From positions 2,528,001-2,592,000 of the forward strand of contig OY969695.1 of the NCBI GenBank assembly GCA_963701965.1: DNA of 64,000 nucleotides. Reading direction: 5' to 3'. The position numbers and the translations under genes are program-made. Source of the stretch: an uncultured Gemmatimonadales bacterium (GTDB taxonomy: Bacteria; Gemmatimonadota; Gemmatimonadetes; Gemmatimonadales; Gemmatimonadaceae). The notes below the pieces were generated by a model. That model saw only the letters and a list, made by a program, of their open reading frames with translations. It made no database searches and was not told the DNA's origin. Positions 26,904 through 42,059 of the stretch are shown in pieces (position 1 is the stretch's first letter; every line of letters starts with the position of its first letter).

Positions 26904-28134
26904 ATGCCTCTCGCCAGCCGCCGTCAGACGGTAACCGCCTCCGTGGGCGGTGTCGCGATCGGATCCGCGCACCCGATCGTCGTGCAATCCATGACCAACA
27001 CCGATACTGCCAATGCCGCCGCCACCGCGGAACAGGTGGTCGCGCTCGCCCGGGCGGGCTCGCAGCTGGTGCGGATTACGGTCAACAACGAGGAGGCCGC
27101 GGCAGCGGTTTCCGGGATCGCCGAACGGGTCGCCGACCTCGGGGTCACCGTCCCGCTCGTCGGCGACTTCCACTACAACGGCCACCTGCTGCTCGCCAAA
27201 TACCCGGCCTGCGCCCGCGCGCTGGCCAAGTACCGCATCAACCCGGGCAACGTCGGCGGCAAACGCCGCGACGAGCACTTCCGGCAAATCGTCGAGATCG
27301 CGCTCGACAACGACAAACCGGTCCGGATCGGCGTGAACTGGGGATCCCTCGACCAGGATCTCCTCACCACCATGATGGATGAGAACGCCGGGCGCAGCGA
27401 GCCGCTCGAATGCGCGCGACGTCATGATCGAGGCCATGATCGAAAGCGGCCTCCGCTCGGCCACCCTCGCCGAATCCGTGGGCCTTGGCCACGACCGCAT
27501 CCTCATCTCGGCCAAGGTGAGCCTGGTGCCGGACCTGGTCGACGTCTACCGCCGTCTGGCGCCCCGCTGCGACTATCCGCTCCACTTGGGACTCACCGAG
27601 GCGGGACTGGGCACCAAAGGGGTGGTCGGATCCAGCGCGGCGCTCGCGATCCTGCTCGGCGAAGGCATCGGCGACACGATCCGGGTCTCCCTCACCCCGC
27701 GCCCGAACGGGGATCGCACCGAAGAGGTCATTGTCGCCCAACAGATCCTGCAGTCGCTCGGTCTCCGCAACTTCACGCCGCAAGTCACGGCGTGTCCGGG
27801 CTGCGGGCGCACGACATCGACCTTCTTTCAGCACATGGCCGAGGACATCCAAACCTATCTGCGCGAGCAAATGCCGGTGTGGCGGGAACAACATCCCGGG
27901 GTCGAGACCATGCGGGTCGCGGTCATGGGATGCGTGGTCAATGGCCCGGGCGAATCCAAGCATGCCAACATCGGCATCTCGCTCCCCGGCACGTTCGAGG
28001 AGCCGAAAGCCCCGGTCTACGTCGACGGCAAACTGGTCGTGACGCTGCGCGGCGAAGGCATCGTGCCGGAGTTTCTGGCCATTCTCGAGGACTACGTCGC
28101 CCGGACGTACCCTGCCGCGATGCCGGTCGCGTGA
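26904..28134 (+). CDS. ispG: HMBPP synthase (GcpE), 1-bp frameshift near 27409
   Basis: [26 protein letters not shown]; after the shift [34 protein letters not shown]. Confidence 0.93.
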
Positions 28135-29974: not shown

Positions 29975-30997
29975 ATGCGCGACCGCGTAATGCGCGCGAT
30001 GCTGCTGGAGGCGCCGCGCCAGCCGCTCCACATGGTCGAGTGGGCGGAGCCGACGCCCCTCGATGGGCAGATCCTGATCCACGTGCGGGCGTGCGGCGTC
30101 TGCCGGACGGATGTGCACATCGTCGACGGCGAGCTGCCGAACCCGGCGGTGCCTTTGATCATCGGCCACCAGATCGTAGGAACAGTCGCGGCCCGTGGCC
30201 CGGGCGCCGAGCGGTTCGAGATCGGGGCGCGGGTGGGCGTGCCGTGGCTGGGGTGGACGGACGAGACGTGCCGCTACTGCCGGAGCGGCCGCGAGAACCT
30301 GTGCCCGAATGCCCGCTTCACGGGCTACACGATCAATGGGGGCTACGCGGACGCGGTCACCGCCGATGAGCGCTATGCGGTCGCGATTCCCGACGACTTC
30401 ACGGACACGCAGGCGGCGCCGTTGCTGTGCGCGGGACTGATCGGATACCGCGCCTTGATGGCGGCGGGCGACGCGCGGCGGGTGGGCTTCTACGGGTTCG
30501 GGGCCTCGGCGCACCTCATCGCCCAGGTGGCGCGCTACCAGGGCCGCGAGGTGTACGCATTCACGCGCCCGGGCGATACGACGACGCAAGCGTTCGCCAA
30601 GAGTCTGGGCGCCGCGTGGGCGGGGGACTCGGACACGATGCCGCCTGAGCGGCTGGATGCGGCGATTCTGTTCGCGCCCGTGGGCGCGCTGGTGCCGACG
30701 GCGCTGCGCGCCGTGGACCGGGGCGGGGTGGTGGTGAGCGCGGGCATCCACATGTCGGCCATCCCGTCGTTTCCGTACGCGTTGCTGTGGGAGGAACGGT
30801 CGATCCGGTCGATCGCGAATCTCACGCGACGGGACGCCGAGGAATTCATGGCGCTGGCGCCGCGCGTGCCGGTGCGGCCAACGGTGACGTCGTACCCGCT
30901 GGCCCACGCCAACCGCGCGCTCGCCGATCTGCGCGCGGGCCGCGTGCGTGGTGCCGCGGTGCTCGTCATGTCCGGCACGCCGCGCTTGACACGGTGA
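29975..30997 (+). CDS. Zinc-dependent alcohol dehydrogenase family protein
   Basis: CGVCRTD.H, GHQIVG, C..C..G.ENLC, APLLCAG, GFGASAH. Confidence 0.92.
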   Translation: MRDRVMRAMLLEAPRQPLHMVEWAEPTPLDGQILIHVRACGVCRTDVHIVDGELPNPAVPLIIGHQIVGTVAARGPGAERFEIGARVGVPWLGWTDETCRYCRSGRENLCPNARFTGYTINGGYADAVTADERYAVAIPDDFTDTQAAPLLCAGLIGYRALMAAGDARRVGFYGFGASAHLIAQVARYQGREVYAFTRPGDTTTQAFAKSLGAAWAGDSDTMPPERLDAAILFAPVGALVPTALRAVDRGGVVVSAGIHMSAIPSFPYALLWEERSIRSIANLTRRDAEEFMALAPRVPVRPTVTSYPLAHANRALADLRAGRVRGAAVLVMSGTPRLTR

Positions 30998-31167
30998 GCG
31001 ACCGTACCTACCGGCAGCGCACCGGCATCCCCGCGTCCCTCGTGGTGGTGGGCTTGGCCGCGAACGATTTCACGATCGCGGATGCGGACGATCCCGCGAT
31101 GCTCGACGTCGTGGGTCTCGATACCACCACGCCGCAGATGATCGCGTCGTTCATGACCGACGGCTGA
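30994..31167 (+). pseudogene. C-terminal remnant (57 aa) of a Ro60/TROVE-vWA protein
   Basis: YRQRTGIPASLVVVGLAANDFTIADADDPAMLDVVGLDTTTPQMIASF matches the Ro60 C-terminal pattern YR..GI.A.L.V.G...N.FTIAD.DD..MLD..G.D...P..I..F (recognised by eye). Confidence 0.75.
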
Positions 31168-31248
31168 CAACGAAAGAGCCCCGGGAGAAATTCCCCGGGG
31201 CTCTTGTCGTTCGTATGGCGGTGGAACCGCCACGGCCGTCTCGCAAGC
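31168..31248 (-). ncRNA. Putative small RNA 1, antisense to the anticodon arm of the adjacent tRNA
   Basis: TTGACG-N16-TAAAAT promoter (31283-31256); 5' GCTTGCGAGACGGCCGTG is 17/18 complementary to tRNA C23-C40; internal hairpin; terminator hairpin 31174-31205. Confidence 0.7.
31174..31205. terminator. Probable bidirectional terminator
   Basis: AAGAGCCCCGGG...CCCGGGGCTCTT stem with short T-rich tails on both strands. Confidence 0.75.
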
Positions 31249-31321
31249 ACTTTCAATTTTATATGATTCCACGCCAGCGTCAACGCTGCGGATTACCGAA
31301 TTCTACGATTGCCAACTAGCG

Positions 31322-31405
31322 TACCCGGGACGGGATTCGAACCCGCACGCCCTTGCGGGCAGCCGCTTGCGAGACGGCTGTGTCTACCAGTTCCACCACC
31401 CGGGC
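31322..31405 (-). tRNA. Atypical tRNA: Leu-type (class II) body with Ala anticodon CGC
   Basis: GCCCGGG TG GTGG AACTGGTAG ACAC A GCCGT CTCGCAA GCGGC T GCCC GCAA GGGC GT GCGGG TTCGAAT CCCGT CCCGGGT A; full cloverleaf, long variable arm, A15/U48, A73, C3-G70; CCA not encoded. Confidence 0.92.
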
Positions 31406-31481
31406 ACCGTTCACGCTCGGCGAAAACTGGATGGTGCGACACAGATTCATCGCAAGTGCTGCGCGACTAGCTGGCGGCGAA

Positions 31482-31513
31482 CAATGTATCGACCCGATGC
31501 GATTCGCGCATCG
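31482..31513 (-). promoter_or_regulatory. Putative promoter of the tRNA precursor with palindrome over -35
   Basis: CGATGCG-N5-CGCATCG palindrome (31495-31513); ATGCGC-N17-TACATT. Confidence 0.65.
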
Positions 31514-31539
31514 TTGTATTTCGCACATCATCATGACCA

Positions 31540-31594
31540 ACAACGAAAGAGCCCCGAGGGACATCCCCCGGGGCTCCACAGCAGTCTCGCACGC
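31540..31594 (-). ncRNA. Putative small RNA 2, antisense to the anticodon arm of the adjacent tRNA
   Basis: 5' GCGTGCGAGACTGCTGTG is 16/18 complementary to tRNA C23-C40; followed directly by terminator 31549-31576, which shares a 17-nt tail with sRNA 1. Confidence 0.65.
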
Positions 31595-31599
31595 ACCCG

Positions 31600-31631
31600 C
31601 AATGTATCGGCACGATGCGATTCGCGCATCG
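31600..31631 (-). promoter_or_regulatory. Duplicate promoter block for sRNA 2
   Basis: 30/32 identical to 31482-31513. Confidence 0.65.
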
Positions 31632-31645
31632 GTGAATGTCACACG

Positions 31646-32269
31646 TCAGCGCGCGGCGACCTCGGCCCCGCGGCGTTCGACATCGTCCGTGGCGAGGCGC
31701 AGCTCGGCGAGGATCGGTGCGGTGAATCCGACCTCGGCGAGGCGATCGCTGAGCTCCCGGTAGTAGCGAATCGTGCCTTCGCGCCCGCGCAACGTCCGCG
31801 TCCAGATGGTCTCGGGATAGTCGGTGCGCCGGAGATCGGCGAGGATGGTGCCGATGCTGTGCAGCGCGTCGGCCGCGCCGACCCAGCGCGAGGCGTCAGT
31901 CGCGATGGCCAGTCGCGTGACGACATCGCGCTTGCGCTCATCGGGCGAGAGCTCGACACCGTTGTCATCCGTCCGCCGCTCCGTCACGGCCAGCGCGATC
32001 TCGAGAACGCTCTGGCCGAACTTGGCGCCGATCCAATCATCGAGCTCTTCGCGCGTGAATCCGTCGCGCACGGACCCTTCCACGACGCCATGCAGGATGC
32101 CGGCGAGCACCGTGTCCTCCGGCTGGCCATATCGCGTGAGAATGACCGCGACATTCGCCGGCCGGGTCAGATACGGCAGAGCCGTACCCTTCCGCACCTG
32201 GGTATCGTGATGTTTCGCCGCAAAGGCGAACGCGTGATTGATGCGGTCGGAGTAGCCGGAAATAGTCAA
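31646..32269 (-). CDS. HD-domain protein (RelA/SpoT-hydrolase / Mesh1-like) with degenerate metal site
   Basis: AFAFAAKHH..Q.RKGT..PYL.RP..VA, AGILHGVVEG (HD to HG, ED to EG), VTE; TTG start assumed. Confidence 0.75.
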   Translation of the reverse strand: MTISGYSDRINHAFAFAAKHHDTQVRKGTALPYLTRPANVAVILTRYGQPEDTVLAGILHGVVEGSVRDGFTREELDDWIGAKFGQSVLEIALAVTERRTDDNGVELSPDERKRDVVTRLAIATDASRWVGAADALHSIGTILADLRRTDYPETIWTRTLRGREGTIRYYRELSDRLAEVGFTAPILAELRLATDDVERRGAEVAAR

Positions 32270-32354
32270 CGCAGACGCCGAAACGAGAGGGCCAGGGTCG
32301 TCGAAGATCGCCAGACGCGAGCCCCCGAGCAAGGGCTTCGGCCCAGTTGGTCCG

Positions 32355-32804
32355 TTACACGTATTGATTCACGACCGCGATGAACCGGGCGTGGAGCGCG
32401 AGCAGCGCCGTGCCCTGCACTATTATTCCAAGTCCGGCGCCGATGCCCCCGGCCCGGCGTCCTTGCGTCAGCACGACGGTCGCCAGCACGAGCGTCAACC
32501 CCGCGGCGGCGAAGCCAATGTCCAGACCGCTCTCCAGCCACAGGAGACGGCTGAGGCGTGCGGCGGCGCCCAGATCGCGGAGTGCGAGCCCATGTAGACG
32601 GCGCGCCGCCACGGCCAGTTCGACGGCGCCCCAAGCAAGCGTTTGGAACGCGAACCCCTGCAAGAGCGGCGAATGCCCCTGACGCCGGCGCAATACCGCC
32701 AGCGACGCGAGGACCGCCGTCCCGGCGACGATGGAGATCAGCGCCCACAGCGCGAGTCGCACCAGGTGCGCGCGCTCAGCGAGGAGTAAGGTGTCCGCCC
32801 ACAT
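32355..32804 (-). CDS. Hypothetical membrane protein (about 4 TM)
   Basis: Four hydrophobic segments; W...GLD.G motif. Confidence 0.7.
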   Translation of the reverse strand: MWADTLLLAERAHLVRLALWALISIVAGTAVLASLAVLRRRQGHSPLLQGFAFQTLAWGAVELAVAARRLHGLALRDLGAAARLSRLLWLESGLDIGFAAAGLTLVLATVVLTQGRRAGGIGAGLGIIVQGTALLALHARFIAVVNQYV

Positions 32805-34461
32805 GCCGCCTAAAGTAGCCGATCCGACGTTTCAGGAATGGGCCGAGACGGCCGACGCGATCCGCGCCACGACCAAGCGCCTCGAAAAATCCGCCCTGTT
32901 GGAGCACTACTGCGCCGCGCTGCACGGCACCCCGCTGGCGATCGCCGCGCGATTCTTCTCCGGCATCGTGTTCGCCAGGCACGACATGCGCACGACGAAC
33001 GTCGGCGGCACCATCATCTGGCGCGCCCTCGCCGCGCTCACCGGACACCCTCCGGATGAACTGGGCGCCCGCTATCTCGCCCACGGCGATCTCGGCGACC
33101 TGGCCGGCGAGCTGCTGGCCGACCGCGCGCCGAGTGGCATCACGCTCGTCGCGCTCGCCGAGTGGTTCGCGCGGCTCGCCGCGGCCCCCGGCACCAACGC
33201 CCGCCGCGCAATGATCGCCGAACAACTCGGCGCCCTGGGCGGACTGGAGGCCCGGTTCGTCATCAAGCTCCTCGGCGGCGAGCTGCGCATCGGGCTCAAG
33301 GAAGCGCAGGTGGAGGAGGCGCTGGCCCGCGCGTTCGCGCAGACCCTGGGCACCGTGCGCCGCGCCAACCTGCTCCGCGGAGACATCGGCGAAGTGGCGC
33401 AACTCGCCCGCGACGGTCTCTTGGAGACGGCGGTCCTGACGCTGTTTCATCCCATTGGATTCATGCTCGCCCAACCGCTGGCCACCGCCGATGAAATCTT
33501 GGCCACGCTGCCCGCGCCGTTCGCGATCGAGCACAAATACGATGGGATCCGCGCCCAAGCTCACGTGGGCGCCGATCGCGTCGTGCTCTTCTCCCGCACC
33601 TTGGATGACGTGTCACGGGGATATCCCGAAGTCATCGCGGCGCTGTCGCGCGTGCCGTCCGGTCTCGTGCTCGACGGCGAATTGATCGCCTATGATTCGG
33701 ACAATGCGGACGACCCAACACGCGCGCTCCCGTTCCTCGCATTACAGAAAAGGTTGGGCCGCAAATCGCCCGGCGCGACGCTGCTGCAAGAAGTCCCCGT
33801 CGCTCTCGTCGTCTTCGACATCCTGGCCGCGGACGGCGCGCTCGTCATCGACGAGCCATACACCGCGCGGCGCCAACGCCTGGAGGCCATGACCTGGCCG
33901 CCGCCCACGCTCCGCCTGGCACCCGTGATCGTCGCGCAAACCGTCGAAGAGGTCGACGCGGCATTCCGTGACGCGCGAGCGACCGGCAACGAAGGGTTGG
34001 TCGCCAAGGATCGGGCATCGACCTATACCCCCGGCCGCCGCGGCAAAACGTGGATCAAGCTCAAACGCGCCGAGCATACGCTCAATGTGGTGGTGACCGC
34101 CGTCGAGCGCGGACACGGGCGGCGTCGCGACGTGCTCTCCGATTATACATTTGCCGTGCGCGCTTCCGACACGGACCCGACGTTGCTCGACGTCGGCAAG
34201 GCGTACAACGGTCTCACCGACGCGGAGATCGCGGCGATGACGAAACGATTCGAAGACCTCACCATCACGCGGCGCGGCGGGTACCATGTCGTCCAACCCG
34301 AGGTCGTACTGGAAGTCACGTTCGACATCGTGCAGCCGTCGGACCGGCACGCCGCCGGCTACGCCCTGAGGTTTCCGCGCATCGTGCGCATTCGGGACGA
34401 TAAGCCCGTCGCCGAGATCGACACCCTCGATCGCGTGCGCGCGCTAGCGGCGGCGCTCTGA
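32803..34461 (+). CDS. ATP-dependent DNA ligase (LigB-like)
   Basis: EHKYDGIR, LDGEL, VFDIL, EGLVAK, YTPGRRG..WIKLK, LRFPR..RIR.DK. Confidence 0.95.
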   Translation: MPPKVADPTFQEWAETADAIRATTKRLEKSALLEHYCAALHGTPLAIAARFFSGIVFARHDMRTTNVGGTIIWRALAALTGHPPDELGARYLAHGDLGDLAGELLADRAPSGITLVALAEWFARLAAAPGTNARRAMIAEQLGALGGLEARFVIKLLGGELRIGLKEAQVEEALARAFAQTLGTVRRANLLRGDIGEVAQLARDGLLETAVLTLFHPIGFMLAQPLATADEILATLPAPFAIEHKYDGIRAQAHVGADRVVLFSRTLDDVSRGYPEVIAALSRVPSGLVLDGELIAYDSDNADDPTRALPFLALQKRLGRKSPGATLLQEVPVALVVFDILAADGALVIDEPYTARRQRLEAMTWPPPTLRLAPVIVAQTVEEVDAAFRDARATGNEGLVAKDRASTYTPGRRGKTWIKLKRAEHTLNVVVTAVERGHGRRRDVLSDYTFAVRASDTDPTLLDVGKAYNGLTDAEIAAMTKRFEDLTITRRGGYHVVQPEVVLEVTFDIVQPSDRHAAGYALRFPRIVRIRDDKPVAEIDTLDRVRALAAAL

Positions 34462-41330: not shown

Positions 41331-42059
41331 GTGCGCGTCTCCGTGTTCGATTACGGCGCCGGCAACTTGCACTCGTTGTGCAAGGCGCTCGAGGCGCCCG
41401 GGATCTCGGTGGGGATCGAGACCGACCCGATGCAAGCGCTCGCCGCCGACGCGCTCGTCCTGCCCGGCGTCGGCGCATTTCCCACCGCCGCCGAGCGGCT
41501 GGCGCCCGGCCGGCTGGCCGTCGCCGATGCGCTGGCCTCGGGGATGCCATGCCTGGCGATCTGTCTCGGGATGCAGCTCTTGTTCGACGACAGCGAGGAA
41601 GGCGAGGGTGAGGGCCTGAGCGTGATTGCCGGCCAGGTCACGCGGCTGGTGTCCCGCCGCGTGCCCCATATCGGCTGGAGCGCGTTGGAGCTCGCGGAGC
41701 GGGAGGATCCCGGCTCAGCCGGGATCAGTCCAACCGACCCCGGATCTCGCGACGCGGCGCGGCGCAGGGATCCCGGCGCAGCCGGGATCAGTCCAACCGA
41801 CCCCGGATCTCGCGACGCGGAGCGTCGCAGAGATCCTTTGTTCGTCGCGTCGGGGTTGGACGTCGCGTATTTCGCCCACAGCTATGCGTGCCGGCCGTCG
41901 GACGCCAAGCTCGTGACCGCGTGGACCACGGAGGGCGATGATCGTTTCGCGGCGGCGATCCGTTGGCGCAACGTCTTGGGAGTCCAGTTTCATCCCGAGA
42001 AGAGCTCGGCGGCTGGCGTGCGATTCGTGCGCGGATTTCTGGCGCGGGCGGCGGCGTGA
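41331..42059 (+). CDS. hisH: IGP synthase glutaminase subunit with 42-aa repeat insertion
   Basis: DYGAGNL.S, LPGVGAF, ICLGMQ, PHIGW, YFAHSY, QFHPEKS. Confidence 0.95.
   Translation: MRVSVFDYGAGNLHSLCKALEAPGISVGIETDPMQALAADALVLPGVGAFPTAAERLAPGRLAVADALASGMPCLAICLGMQLLFDDSEEGEGEGLSVIAGQVTRLVSRRVPHIGWSALELAEREDPGSAGISPTDPGSRDAARRRDPGAAGISPTDPGSRDAERRRDPLFVASGLDVAYFAHSYACRPSDAKLVTAWTTEGDDRFAAAIRWRNVLGVQFHPEKSSAAGVRFVRGFLARAAA
41706..41836 (+). repeat. Two tandem 63-bp palindromic elements inserted in frame in hisH
   Basis: GATCC at 41706, 41769 and 41832; each unit has a GATCCCGGC-N3-GCCGGGATC hairpin and a GCGACGC-N3-GCG(T/G)CGC hairpin. Confidence 0.92.

Follow-up and report, generated by a model that had tools for sequence, protein, structure and literature searches.

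A leucine-bodied tRNA with an alanine anticodon and its covarying anti-anticodon RNA gene, a probable RNA-only toxin-antitoxin module of Gemmatimonadota

Architecture of the locus

The window analyzed here is a stretch of 64,000 nucleotides (nt) from the genome of an uncultured Gemmatimonadales bacterium (GCA_963701965.1, contig OY969695.1, positions 2,528,001 to 2,592,000). Its minus strand carries a transfer RNA (tRNA) gene combining a leucine-type body with the alanine anticodon CGC, preceded by a leader and followed by the gene of a predicted small RNA (sRNA1) whose 5′ end is complementary to the anticodon arm; a second predicted small RNA, sRNA2, lies upstream (Table 1). An earlier note on this DNA, made from the sequence alone, had proposed an RNA-only toxin-antitoxin system in which both sRNAs neutralize a tRNA misreading GCG. 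The comparisons described below reveal a conserved module in which anticodon and antisense tract change together. This locus is likely to be an RNA-only toxin-antitoxin module, whose miscoding-tRNA toxin would insert leucine at GCG unless the predicted sRNA binds it.

Table 1. Features of the module and its direct neighbors (positions within the window)
Feature	Position	Strand	Remarks
Promoter-like element of sRNA2	31601..31631	-	-35 at 31629, 17 bp, -10 ending 31601; within palindrome
Predicted sRNA2	31540..31595	-	Anti-anticodon tract 31594-31577 (16/18), terminator hairpin directly after
Promoter-like element of the leader-tRNA transcript (putative)	31483..31513	-	Carries a 19-bp palindrome
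5′ leader	31406..31476	-	31461-31419 repeats the tRNA 5′ half in inverted, imperfect form; predicted pairing of 31475-31467 with the 3′ trailer
Leucine-bodied type II tRNA	31322..31405	-	Alanine anticodon CGC at 31371-31369; 7/5 cloverleaf; CCA not encoded
3′ trailer	31311..31319	-	Predicted to pair with the leader 5′ end, closing the precursor
sRNA1 promoter, sigma70-type	31256..31283	-	10/12 consensus bases, 16-bp spacer
Predicted sRNA1 (cognate antitoxin)	31167..31250	-	Free 5′ anti-anticodon tail 31248-31231; hairpin 31233-31215 with anti-D-arm sequence; terminator hairpin 31205-31174
Ro60/TROVE C-terminal remnant	30994..31167	+	Pfam vWA_Ro60, E 2.8e-17; converges on the sRNA1 terminator; neighbor outside the module
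HD-domain gene	31646..32332	-	Upstream neighbor; Pfam HD_4; orthologs in 5/5 same-genus genomes

ARAGORN and Rfam both recognized a single tRNA in the window, and the Rfam search returned nothing else, with no CRISPR repeat at the gathering score. The tRNA, its CGC anticodon and the two antisense tracts lie at the minus-strand positions that the earlier note had given. All parts occupy this one strand without overlaps, the sRNA1 promoter, tract and hairpin being 73 nt downstream of the tRNA, and the tRNA module has no plausible coding frame of its own.

The sRNA1 tract pairs with 17 of the 18 bases at positions 24-41 of the tRNA (23-40 in standard numbering), 14 of them contiguous, and the sRNA2 tract with 16 of the same 18; they start 7 and 6 nt, respectively, past -10 hexamers ending at 31256 and 31601. 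Re-measurement returned these values as first claimed, and the 17-nt terminator tail said to be common to both sRNAs was read in the sequence, inside a 37-nt repeat of 89% identity. When the 18-mer was compared with both strands of the 5.1-Mb genome, only sRNA1 matched at 17/18, and two sites matched at 16/18, one of them sRNA2 and the other unrelated; a generous estimate puts the chance of a 17/18 match beside the gene at 7e-5. Complementarity of sRNA1 reaches into the D-arm (tRNA bases 6-41); this extension, the pairing leader, the two paralogs and the Ro60 remnant described below had escaped the earlier note. The sRNA1 transcript is predicted to fold into two hairpins, the second a terminator, behind a free tail (z = -5.08), and its predicted binding energy on the mature tRNA is -21.1 kcal/mol, versus -2.7 to -9.4 kcal/mol on four other tRNAs and versus -6.2 kcal/mol for sRNA2 on the cognate tRNA.

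The promoters and terminators initially assigned to each transcript fared unequally. A consensus scan flagged the sRNA1 promoter as the only promoter and the sRNA2 terminator as the only terminator, so that the sRNA2 promoter was among the elements not picked up; the -35 is poor in the promoters of the tRNA and of sRNA2, and the U-tails are weak. The sRNA2 cassette is composed of a copy of the tRNA promoter (a 49-nt direct repeat with 86% identity to 31482-31530) joined to a copy of the sRNA1 tract and terminator. Judged from this composition, the simplest origin would be a tandem duplication of the module followed by loss of one leader-tRNA, and sRNA2 is probably a relic or an orphan antitoxin. 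The initial picture of a tRNA bracketed by two sRNAs must be replaced by a conserved unit of leader-tRNA and one downstream antisense gene, sRNA2 being the weak binder. A 19-bp palindrome present at 31495-31513 and 31613-31631 overlaps the -35 of the tRNA and sRNA2 promoters and is a possible operator.

The window tRNA displays a long variable arm, A73, A15:U48 and C3:G70; the G3:U70 pair, hallmark of tRNA-Ala, is absent. Leucine identity in E. coli is set by A73, A15-U48, G18G19 and A20a and not by the anticodon (PMC9976931), and the bacterial tRNA-Leu set (A73, A15:U48, G18G19, A20a, long variable arm) is complete here, its D-loop part being contained in our search patterns and A73 and U48 lying outside the genome-scan pattern. 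With anticodons masked, the five best-scoring ordinary tRNAs of the genome are leucine tRNAs (53-61), versus 27.5-32.5 for alanine tRNAs. Among the 28 loci of the family set defined below, A73 and A15:U48 occur in 28/28 and G3:U70 in 0/28, with a canonical 7-nt anticodon loop bearing U33 in 27/28 and a purine at position 37 in 28/28.

Ordinary tRNA-Ala(CGC) and tRNA-Ala(UGC) are both present in the genome. GCG, which had been described as abundant, ranks first in codon usage, with 6.57% of the 793,125 codons counted in 1557 long frames. When three window genes were compared with five same-genus loci, 105 of 215 GCG columns kept GCG, and the other 110 columns held 49 other alanine codons and 6 leucine codons. 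This exchange with alanine codons suggests that GCG means alanine, and a leucine-bodied CGC tRNA would accordingly miscode it as leucine; the miscoding premise of the earlier note holds on the leucine identity elements. As side observations, the ARAGORN calls at G000:C1:724830, 1395854, 2017354, 2356307, 2506819, 2680778 and 4722293 do not show normal tRNA features and seem to be false positives of GC-rich DNA, and C1:1809504 seems to be a degenerate copy of tRNA-Val(GAC); a lowered ARAGORN threshold gave 3498 calls, which are noise.

Covariation of anticodon and antisense tract

Two further leucine-bodied odd tRNAs are encoded in the same genome, with anticodons GAC (C1:2795461-2795545) and CGC (C1:2804589-2804673) and differing anticodon stems. 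The tract downstream of each fits its own arm (16-16.5) better than the arms of the others (7-10.5). Only three of 62 ARAGORN calls genome-wide are followed by such a tract (score 16.5; next best 11), and these are the three leucine-bodied odd tRNAs. A loose scan for promoter-plus-terminator cassettes produced 42 genome-wide matches, mostly noise and with unreliable anticodon labels, among which no orphan cassette was recognized away from these three loci; the matches do not enter any of the counts given here.

Homologous loci were searched for with patterns describing the tRNA alone, from which the antisense was excluded; being exact, they overlook divergent members. They yielded 7 more loci in relatives and 11 viral, 59 genome and 9 metagenome loci; the metagenome pattern placed no constraint on the anticodon, and 0/9 of its loci had a leucine anticodon. 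Nine duplicate loci, L070 (9 nt of flank), L009, L013 and L113 were removed before counting. The family set of 28 consists of loci of the Gemmatimonadota phylum and unlabelled metagenome loci from the tRNA-plus-trailer pattern, and 51 others served as comparison, with one locus lacking flank. Addition of L122, L124 and L159 gave a final family of 31 distinct Gemmatimonadota-type loci, whose 12 anticodons stand for 9 amino acids.

When the downstream 18-mer with the best pairing was chosen with the anticodon masked, it contained the exact anti-anticodon in 24/28 family loci versus 1/51 others. The comparison exception, L054, lies on a 3-kb contig labelled Propionibacteriaceae; it closely resembles L051 and may be mis-binned. 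Two of the missed family loci, L060 and L092, match when read by eye (offset, 1-nt gap), and in a third, L064, the cognate cassette is the third in an array and matches at 17/18. The three loci found once the rule was set, L122 (CGC), L124 (CAC) and L159 (GTC), all conform to it. In total, at least 12 contiguous pairs across the own anticodon were found in 29/31 family loci (28/30 without L067, from a genome marked as unpublished), versus 1/74 other rows, some of which are duplicates, and in 0/14 ordinary leucine tRNAs of the same genomes the tract is present. The anticodon-antisense covariation that the earlier note had put forward as a check was thus strongly borne out.

An alignment of 13 chosen contiguous loci confirmed this behavior, with 96.6% of cells paired and both-sided changes at 13/18 pairs; slid alignments reached 30-36%, and 0/500 shuffles attained the observed value. 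In the 12 core columns, the departures are five G-U and no mismatches, as expected for RNA pairing. The cloverleaf is likewise maintained across the family (98.1% paired, with compensatory changes). Anticodons have switched at several separate chromosomal sites, namely radical-SAM (CGC, CGG, AGG), mutS (CTC, CGC, GAC, CAC), ruvB (GCC, GTC) and HD/Ro60 (CGC, GGA), and at loci of the same site the anticodon and the antisense change together. A sigma70-like element precedes the tract in 28/28 loci, with TTG in 28/28 and a 17-bp spacer in 25/28; its mean score is 11.7 versus 8.1 for shuffles (standard deviation 1.2), under a scoring that rewards consensus bases and 17 bp in real and shuffled sequences alike. 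Both sequence and predicted energy thus point to cognate specificity between tRNA and antisense. The locus is, on this comparative evidence, a real, conserved and covarying RNA module, from which we infer the function discussed below.

Extra cassettes were found at 8/31 loci, within the 300-700 nt of visible flank, and several target other anticodons, which fits toxin-immunity turnover. The second cassette of L122 departs from the arm of that locus at the anticodon loop alone (anti-AGG), L064 harbors three cassettes, L030 and L056 have one upstream each, and L007 and L092 have one each against the D-arm; the second cassette of L088 was read by eye only. From their sequences, these cassettes look like kept immunity to earlier or foreign variants, and an anticodon could switch safely if the antidote were duplicated first. 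The D-arm cassettes (L007:1750-1790 and L092) would also closely match the D-arm of the host's ordinary tRNA-Leu.

Within the 70 nt upstream of the tRNA, the 5′ half of the tRNA recurs imperfectly in inverted orientation, and the start of this leader is predicted to pair with the 3′ trailer. In the fold predicted for the window precursor, the cloverleaf is missing; the whole-fold z is only -1.42, and 23.1 leader-tRNA pairs are expected versus a shuffle mean of 5.0, with 0/30 shuffles as high. In 20/28 loci the prediction gives 20 or more leader-tRNA pairs, a value that at most 1/30 leader shuffles reach. Ordinary leucine and serine tRNAs (eight) have at most 3.6 predicted leader pairs, and sequestration is seen in 0/8. 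Binding of sRNA1 in the window is predicted at -11.1 kcal/mol on the precursor versus -21.1 kcal/mol on the mature tRNA. A strict leader pattern matched 1/401 phylum genomes, that of the window alone, in a sample without same-genus genomes.

Small pieces of the homologous locus L007 are contained in 24 metatranscriptome runs, four of which were examined. Coverage in these four lies mostly in the neighboring TonB-domain gene. One 202-nt contig of depth 2, which may be DNA, spans both sRNA cassettes of that locus and crosses a predicted terminator; because such contigs reveal neither ends nor strand, this coverage counts neither for nor against the module.

Distribution and genomic neighborhood

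The module is patchily distributed, occurring in 4/5 same-genus genomes and in 4/161 family genomes. In Pirellulales, 2/151 genomes match, and only L046 (G419:C2:1565974) has promoter, tract and terminator. This locus combines a leucine-type tRNA(GTC), a strong promoter and a terminator with a tract directed against the variable and anticodon arms, imperfect at the anticodon, and is a candidate member outside Gemmatimonadota on these sequence features. Matches in 25 plasmid records cover the tRNA part only, and the three inspected all have leucine anticodons.

Related tRNA-like genes were noticed elsewhere. The viral loci L022 and L024 are near-identical, with leucine-type tRNAs that differ in the anticodon loop (AGC versus TCC), and have no antisense partner, representing anticodon diversification without antidote. 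Leucine-type tRNAs with the glycine anticodons GCC and TCC recur in viral contigs (L133, L134, L144, L145, L147, L149, L151, L152). Long-arm tRNA-like genes with the stop-reading anticodons TTA or CTA, possible natural nonsense suppressors, were seen in several Proteobacteria and Clostridia genomes (L035, L037, L039, L040, L047, L048, L059, L065, L069, L072, L083; L027, L028, L077, L081).

Neighboring genes are varied chromosomal genes, and within the genus the modules lie at shared chromosomal sites. Neither cas genes nor protein toxin-antitoxin families were recognized among the 8 + 37 neighboring frames scanned, the 37 being taken from 66 candidate frames. The Ro60/TROVE remnant of the window, the sole copy in the genome, retains only the last 57 codons and is fused against the end of the alcohol dehydrogenase gene; in G405 the corresponding site carries an intact Ro60. 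Several modules (L001, L002, L007, L096 and that of the window, where the region concerned is 32731-34461) adjoin DNA-repair genes (Ada-like, labelled from reading the frame, radical SAM with HhH, MutS, RuvB and ATP-dependent ligase), an adjacency that may reflect chance or a common stress regulon. Elsewhere in the window, a tandem repeat of about 20 residues lies inside a hisH-like frame (41600-41800), and an ispG-like coding sequence, so labelled from its frames, is seemingly divided between two frames (26904-28134; start at 26904, then 27379-28134) by a frameshift or sequencing error.

Candidate function and relation to known systems

In the mechanism that we propose, a weak promoter would drive synthesis of a leader-tRNA-trailer precursor, in which the leader is predicted to pair with the tRNA 5′ half and the trailer, blocking the cloverleaf and making the precursor a latent store comparable to full-length hok mRNA. 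Slow 3′ trimming would allow the cloverleaf to form, and RNase P and CCA addition would then mature the tRNA, which leucyl-tRNA synthetase (LeuRS) would charge because this enzyme ignores the anticodon. The free 5′ tail of sRNA1 would seed on the 7-nt anticodon loop and zip into the D-arm, blocking decoding and probably triggering decay of the duplex. Should sRNA transcription stop, through locus loss, phage shut-off or stress, the store would mature unopposed, and proteome-wide alanine-to-leucine errors would lead to growth arrest. Phage exclusion is known for hok/Sok-like modules. The expected toxicity rests on analogy with natural allo-tRNAs of serine identity, which killed E. coli (PMC5389517), and with three tRNA-ProX, which were toxic to differing degrees (PMC10404621); the alanine-reading one was the least toxic, a warning that alanine codons may tolerate substitution. 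Covariation and identity elements support the toxin-antitoxin reading in part; the toxin-antitoxin function itself we infer.

A wider reading, which we advance tentatively and hold to be somewhat short of probable, would see a protein-free programmable toxin-immunity system. The leucine body would be its warhead, the anticodon a variable address, the fold-back leader a time fuse, and the tandem anti-anticodon cassettes a growing record of immunity to variants present, past and foreign, with global miscoding killing or stalling cells when transcription stops, for instance upon phage take-over.

Several observations weigh against a toxin-antitoxin function. Leucine-type odd tRNAs without an antisense partner make up 11/11 and 23/23 viral rows, the cognate tract being present in 0/11 and 0/23, and are found in most other genomes, so that lethality need not follow in every case. 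The 8 + 37 neighboring frames scanned included no integrase, transposase or plasmid gene, which, together with the shared chromosomal sites, does not support classical plasmid addiction. The leader fold is not seen within an 85-nt span at 8/28 loci, leaders show little specificity for their own tRNA (median cognate rank 6.5 of 28), and only at 9/29 loci does the precursor resist the sRNA by at least 5 kcal/mol. The sRNA of L010 targets the variable arm instead of the anticodon. Finally, the loci are related, so the counts given above overstate independence, and the covariation figure is not a probability.

The same anatomy and covariation would be expected of a regulated mistranslation switch, in which the tRNA miscodes at a tolerated, stress-useful level and the sRNA and leader set the dose. 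Chromosomal sites shared within the genus, often beside DNA-repair genes, suit such a switch, as does the increase in carbenicillin tolerance of E. coli caused by tRNA-ProX mistranslation (PMC10404621). A benefit should, however, favor one substitution, and the anticodons represent 9 amino acids, with switches between them at a single site; cassettes against absent anticodons and the patchiness (4/161 family genomes) suit conflict better than physiology. We consider the switch rather unlikely. A non-decoding decoy or sink for anticodon nucleases, LeuRS, EF-Tu or a modification enzyme, with its availability set by the sRNA, would accommodate the lack of an encoded CCA in 27/28 loci and the cassettes aimed at the D-arm (two loci) or the variable arm (one locus); some allo-tRNAs are translation-inactive yet lie near toxin-antitoxin genes (PMC5389517). 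But many ordinary tRNAs of the window genome also lack an encoded CCA, the antitoxin is centred on the anticodon, and the full leucine identity set is kept with a canonical loop, U33 and purine 37, making a decoy quite improbable. A role as modification guide was rejected, the partner being an independent cassette. To our knowledge, box C/D motifs are not expected in bacteria.

The remaining alternatives concern the DNA, the neighboring gene and the code. Both the leader and the sRNA repeat the tRNA 5′ half in inverted orientation, and such repeats can homogenize; the locus could then be a by-product of inverted duplication homogenized by template switching or gene conversion, with no RNA function. 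Yet the copy always lies a few bases past a conserved promoter with a terminator-like hairpin after it, core departures are G-U only, and adjacent duplicated cassettes retain old anticodons instead of being homogenized, so we hold such an origin to be very unlikely. The Ro60 remnant abutting the module, like the intact Ro60 of G405, recalls a YrlA-like Y RNA, a tRNA mimic, as do the 5′-3′ closing stem and a GNCGAAN0-1G motif in 6/30 leaders. The module is nevertheless on the strand opposite Ro60, has the ordinary D-anticodon-V-T order and lacks the motif in the window leader; no Y RNA family is among the 14 Rfam matches (E up to 10), and Ro60 occurs at this one site only among the neighbors scanned. 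A Y RNA is thus highly improbable. Reassignment of GCG from alanine to leucine in this lineage, which the two leucine-type CGC tRNAs of the genome might suggest, is hardly credible in view of the ordinary tRNA-Ala(CGC) and (UGC), of the 49 other alanine versus 6 leucine codons in the 110 non-GCG columns, and of 11 other anticodons in relatives.

The toxin-antitoxin reading places the module closest to type VIII, in which toxin and antitoxin are RNAs and of which creTA and SdsR-RyeA are the two validated kinds (PMC10767807). Both partners would be RNAs, lying within about 200 bp, and the toxin would act on translation, as in these systems (PMC10767807, PMC8501985). In creTA, however, CreT sequesters a host tRNA via a mini open reading frame and CreA needs the CRISPR effector for transcriptional repression, and SdsR and RyeA overlap on opposite strands (PMC10767807), whereas here a tRNA is the presumed toxin, and the antidote, encoded on the same strand without overlap, would pair with the anticodon arm. 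The adjacent CRISPR-Cas and repeat-flanked creA guide characteristic of creTA are absent, with no cas among the neighbors scanned. The predicted 5′-3′ closing stem, which would keep the primary transcript inactive, the presumed processing-dependent refolding and the short, free-tailed putative antitoxin with a terminator hairpin would resemble hok/Sok, where the closed full-length hok mRNA is opened by slow 3′ processing that permits Sok binding (PMC9841398). Unlike hok/Sok, the module has no toxin peptide or mRNA and thus lacks the small protein toxin and the opposite-strand antitoxin of type I; its antitoxin is not cis-antisense, its target is a tRNA anticodon loop, and no plasmid context was seen.

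Natural missense tRNAs offer the other comparison. Allo-tRNAs carry diverse anticodons, are toxic in E. coli and have been suggested to be linked to toxin-antitoxin systems, but they have an 8/4 or 9/3 configuration, serine or alanine identity and G73 or U73, and lie near protein toxin-antitoxin genes (PMC5389517); the window tRNA has a 7-bp acceptor, a 5-bp T stem and A73 and is of leucine type. The main text of that report contains "antisense", "complementary" and "leader" 0 times, and its supplements might show similar flanks. The tRNA-ProX likewise combine one body with several non-cognate anticodons, mistranslate and are toxic in E. coli, and differ by proline identity, a dedicated synthetase and their occurrence in Streptomyces and Kitasatospora (PMC10404621, whose text contains "antisense" and "toxin" 0 times). 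Sequestration of a bacterial tRNA by a base-pairing RNA is described for tRNA-LysT/tRNA-ArgU, where two ordinary tRNAs pair, with no dedicated antisense gene and no miscoding (bioRxiv 10.64898/2026.09.02.748885). YrlA Y RNA has a tRNA-like module near Ro60 and paired ends, and differs by permuted arms (T before D), the same strand as Ro60 and a Ro-binding motif (PMC4201824), none of which fits the window locus. Chimeric tRNAs are recognized and poorly understood (PMC4987944), and a 2024 review of mistranslating tRNAs contains "antisense" or "toxin" 0 times (PMC11415595). This literature, most subscription papers lying outside its scope, yielded no tRNA gene accompanied by an sRNA gene directed against its own anticodon.

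RNA-only toxin-antitoxin systems and toxic missense tRNAs are thus known, and we did not find their union through an anti-anticodon RNA in print. The module would work like hok/Sok and be binned as type VIII if toxic, having no part in common with any named member. Such modules are invisible to protein-based and Rfam annotation, and their tRNAs are mis-called as alanine, valine, glutamate and other tRNAs. With a size of about 300 bp and many natural orthogonal pairs, they may serve as compact switches for controlled mistranslation or containment. Whatever its purpose, the sRNA cassette co-evolves base for base with the anticodon of its tRNA, a form of tRNA control that we did not find described. 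It offers a testable reason for the persistence of "chimeric" tRNAs, a question open for allo-tRNAs and tRNA-ProX. If the tRNA is toxic, the module would be a protein-free toxin-antitoxin system attacking the genetic code itself.

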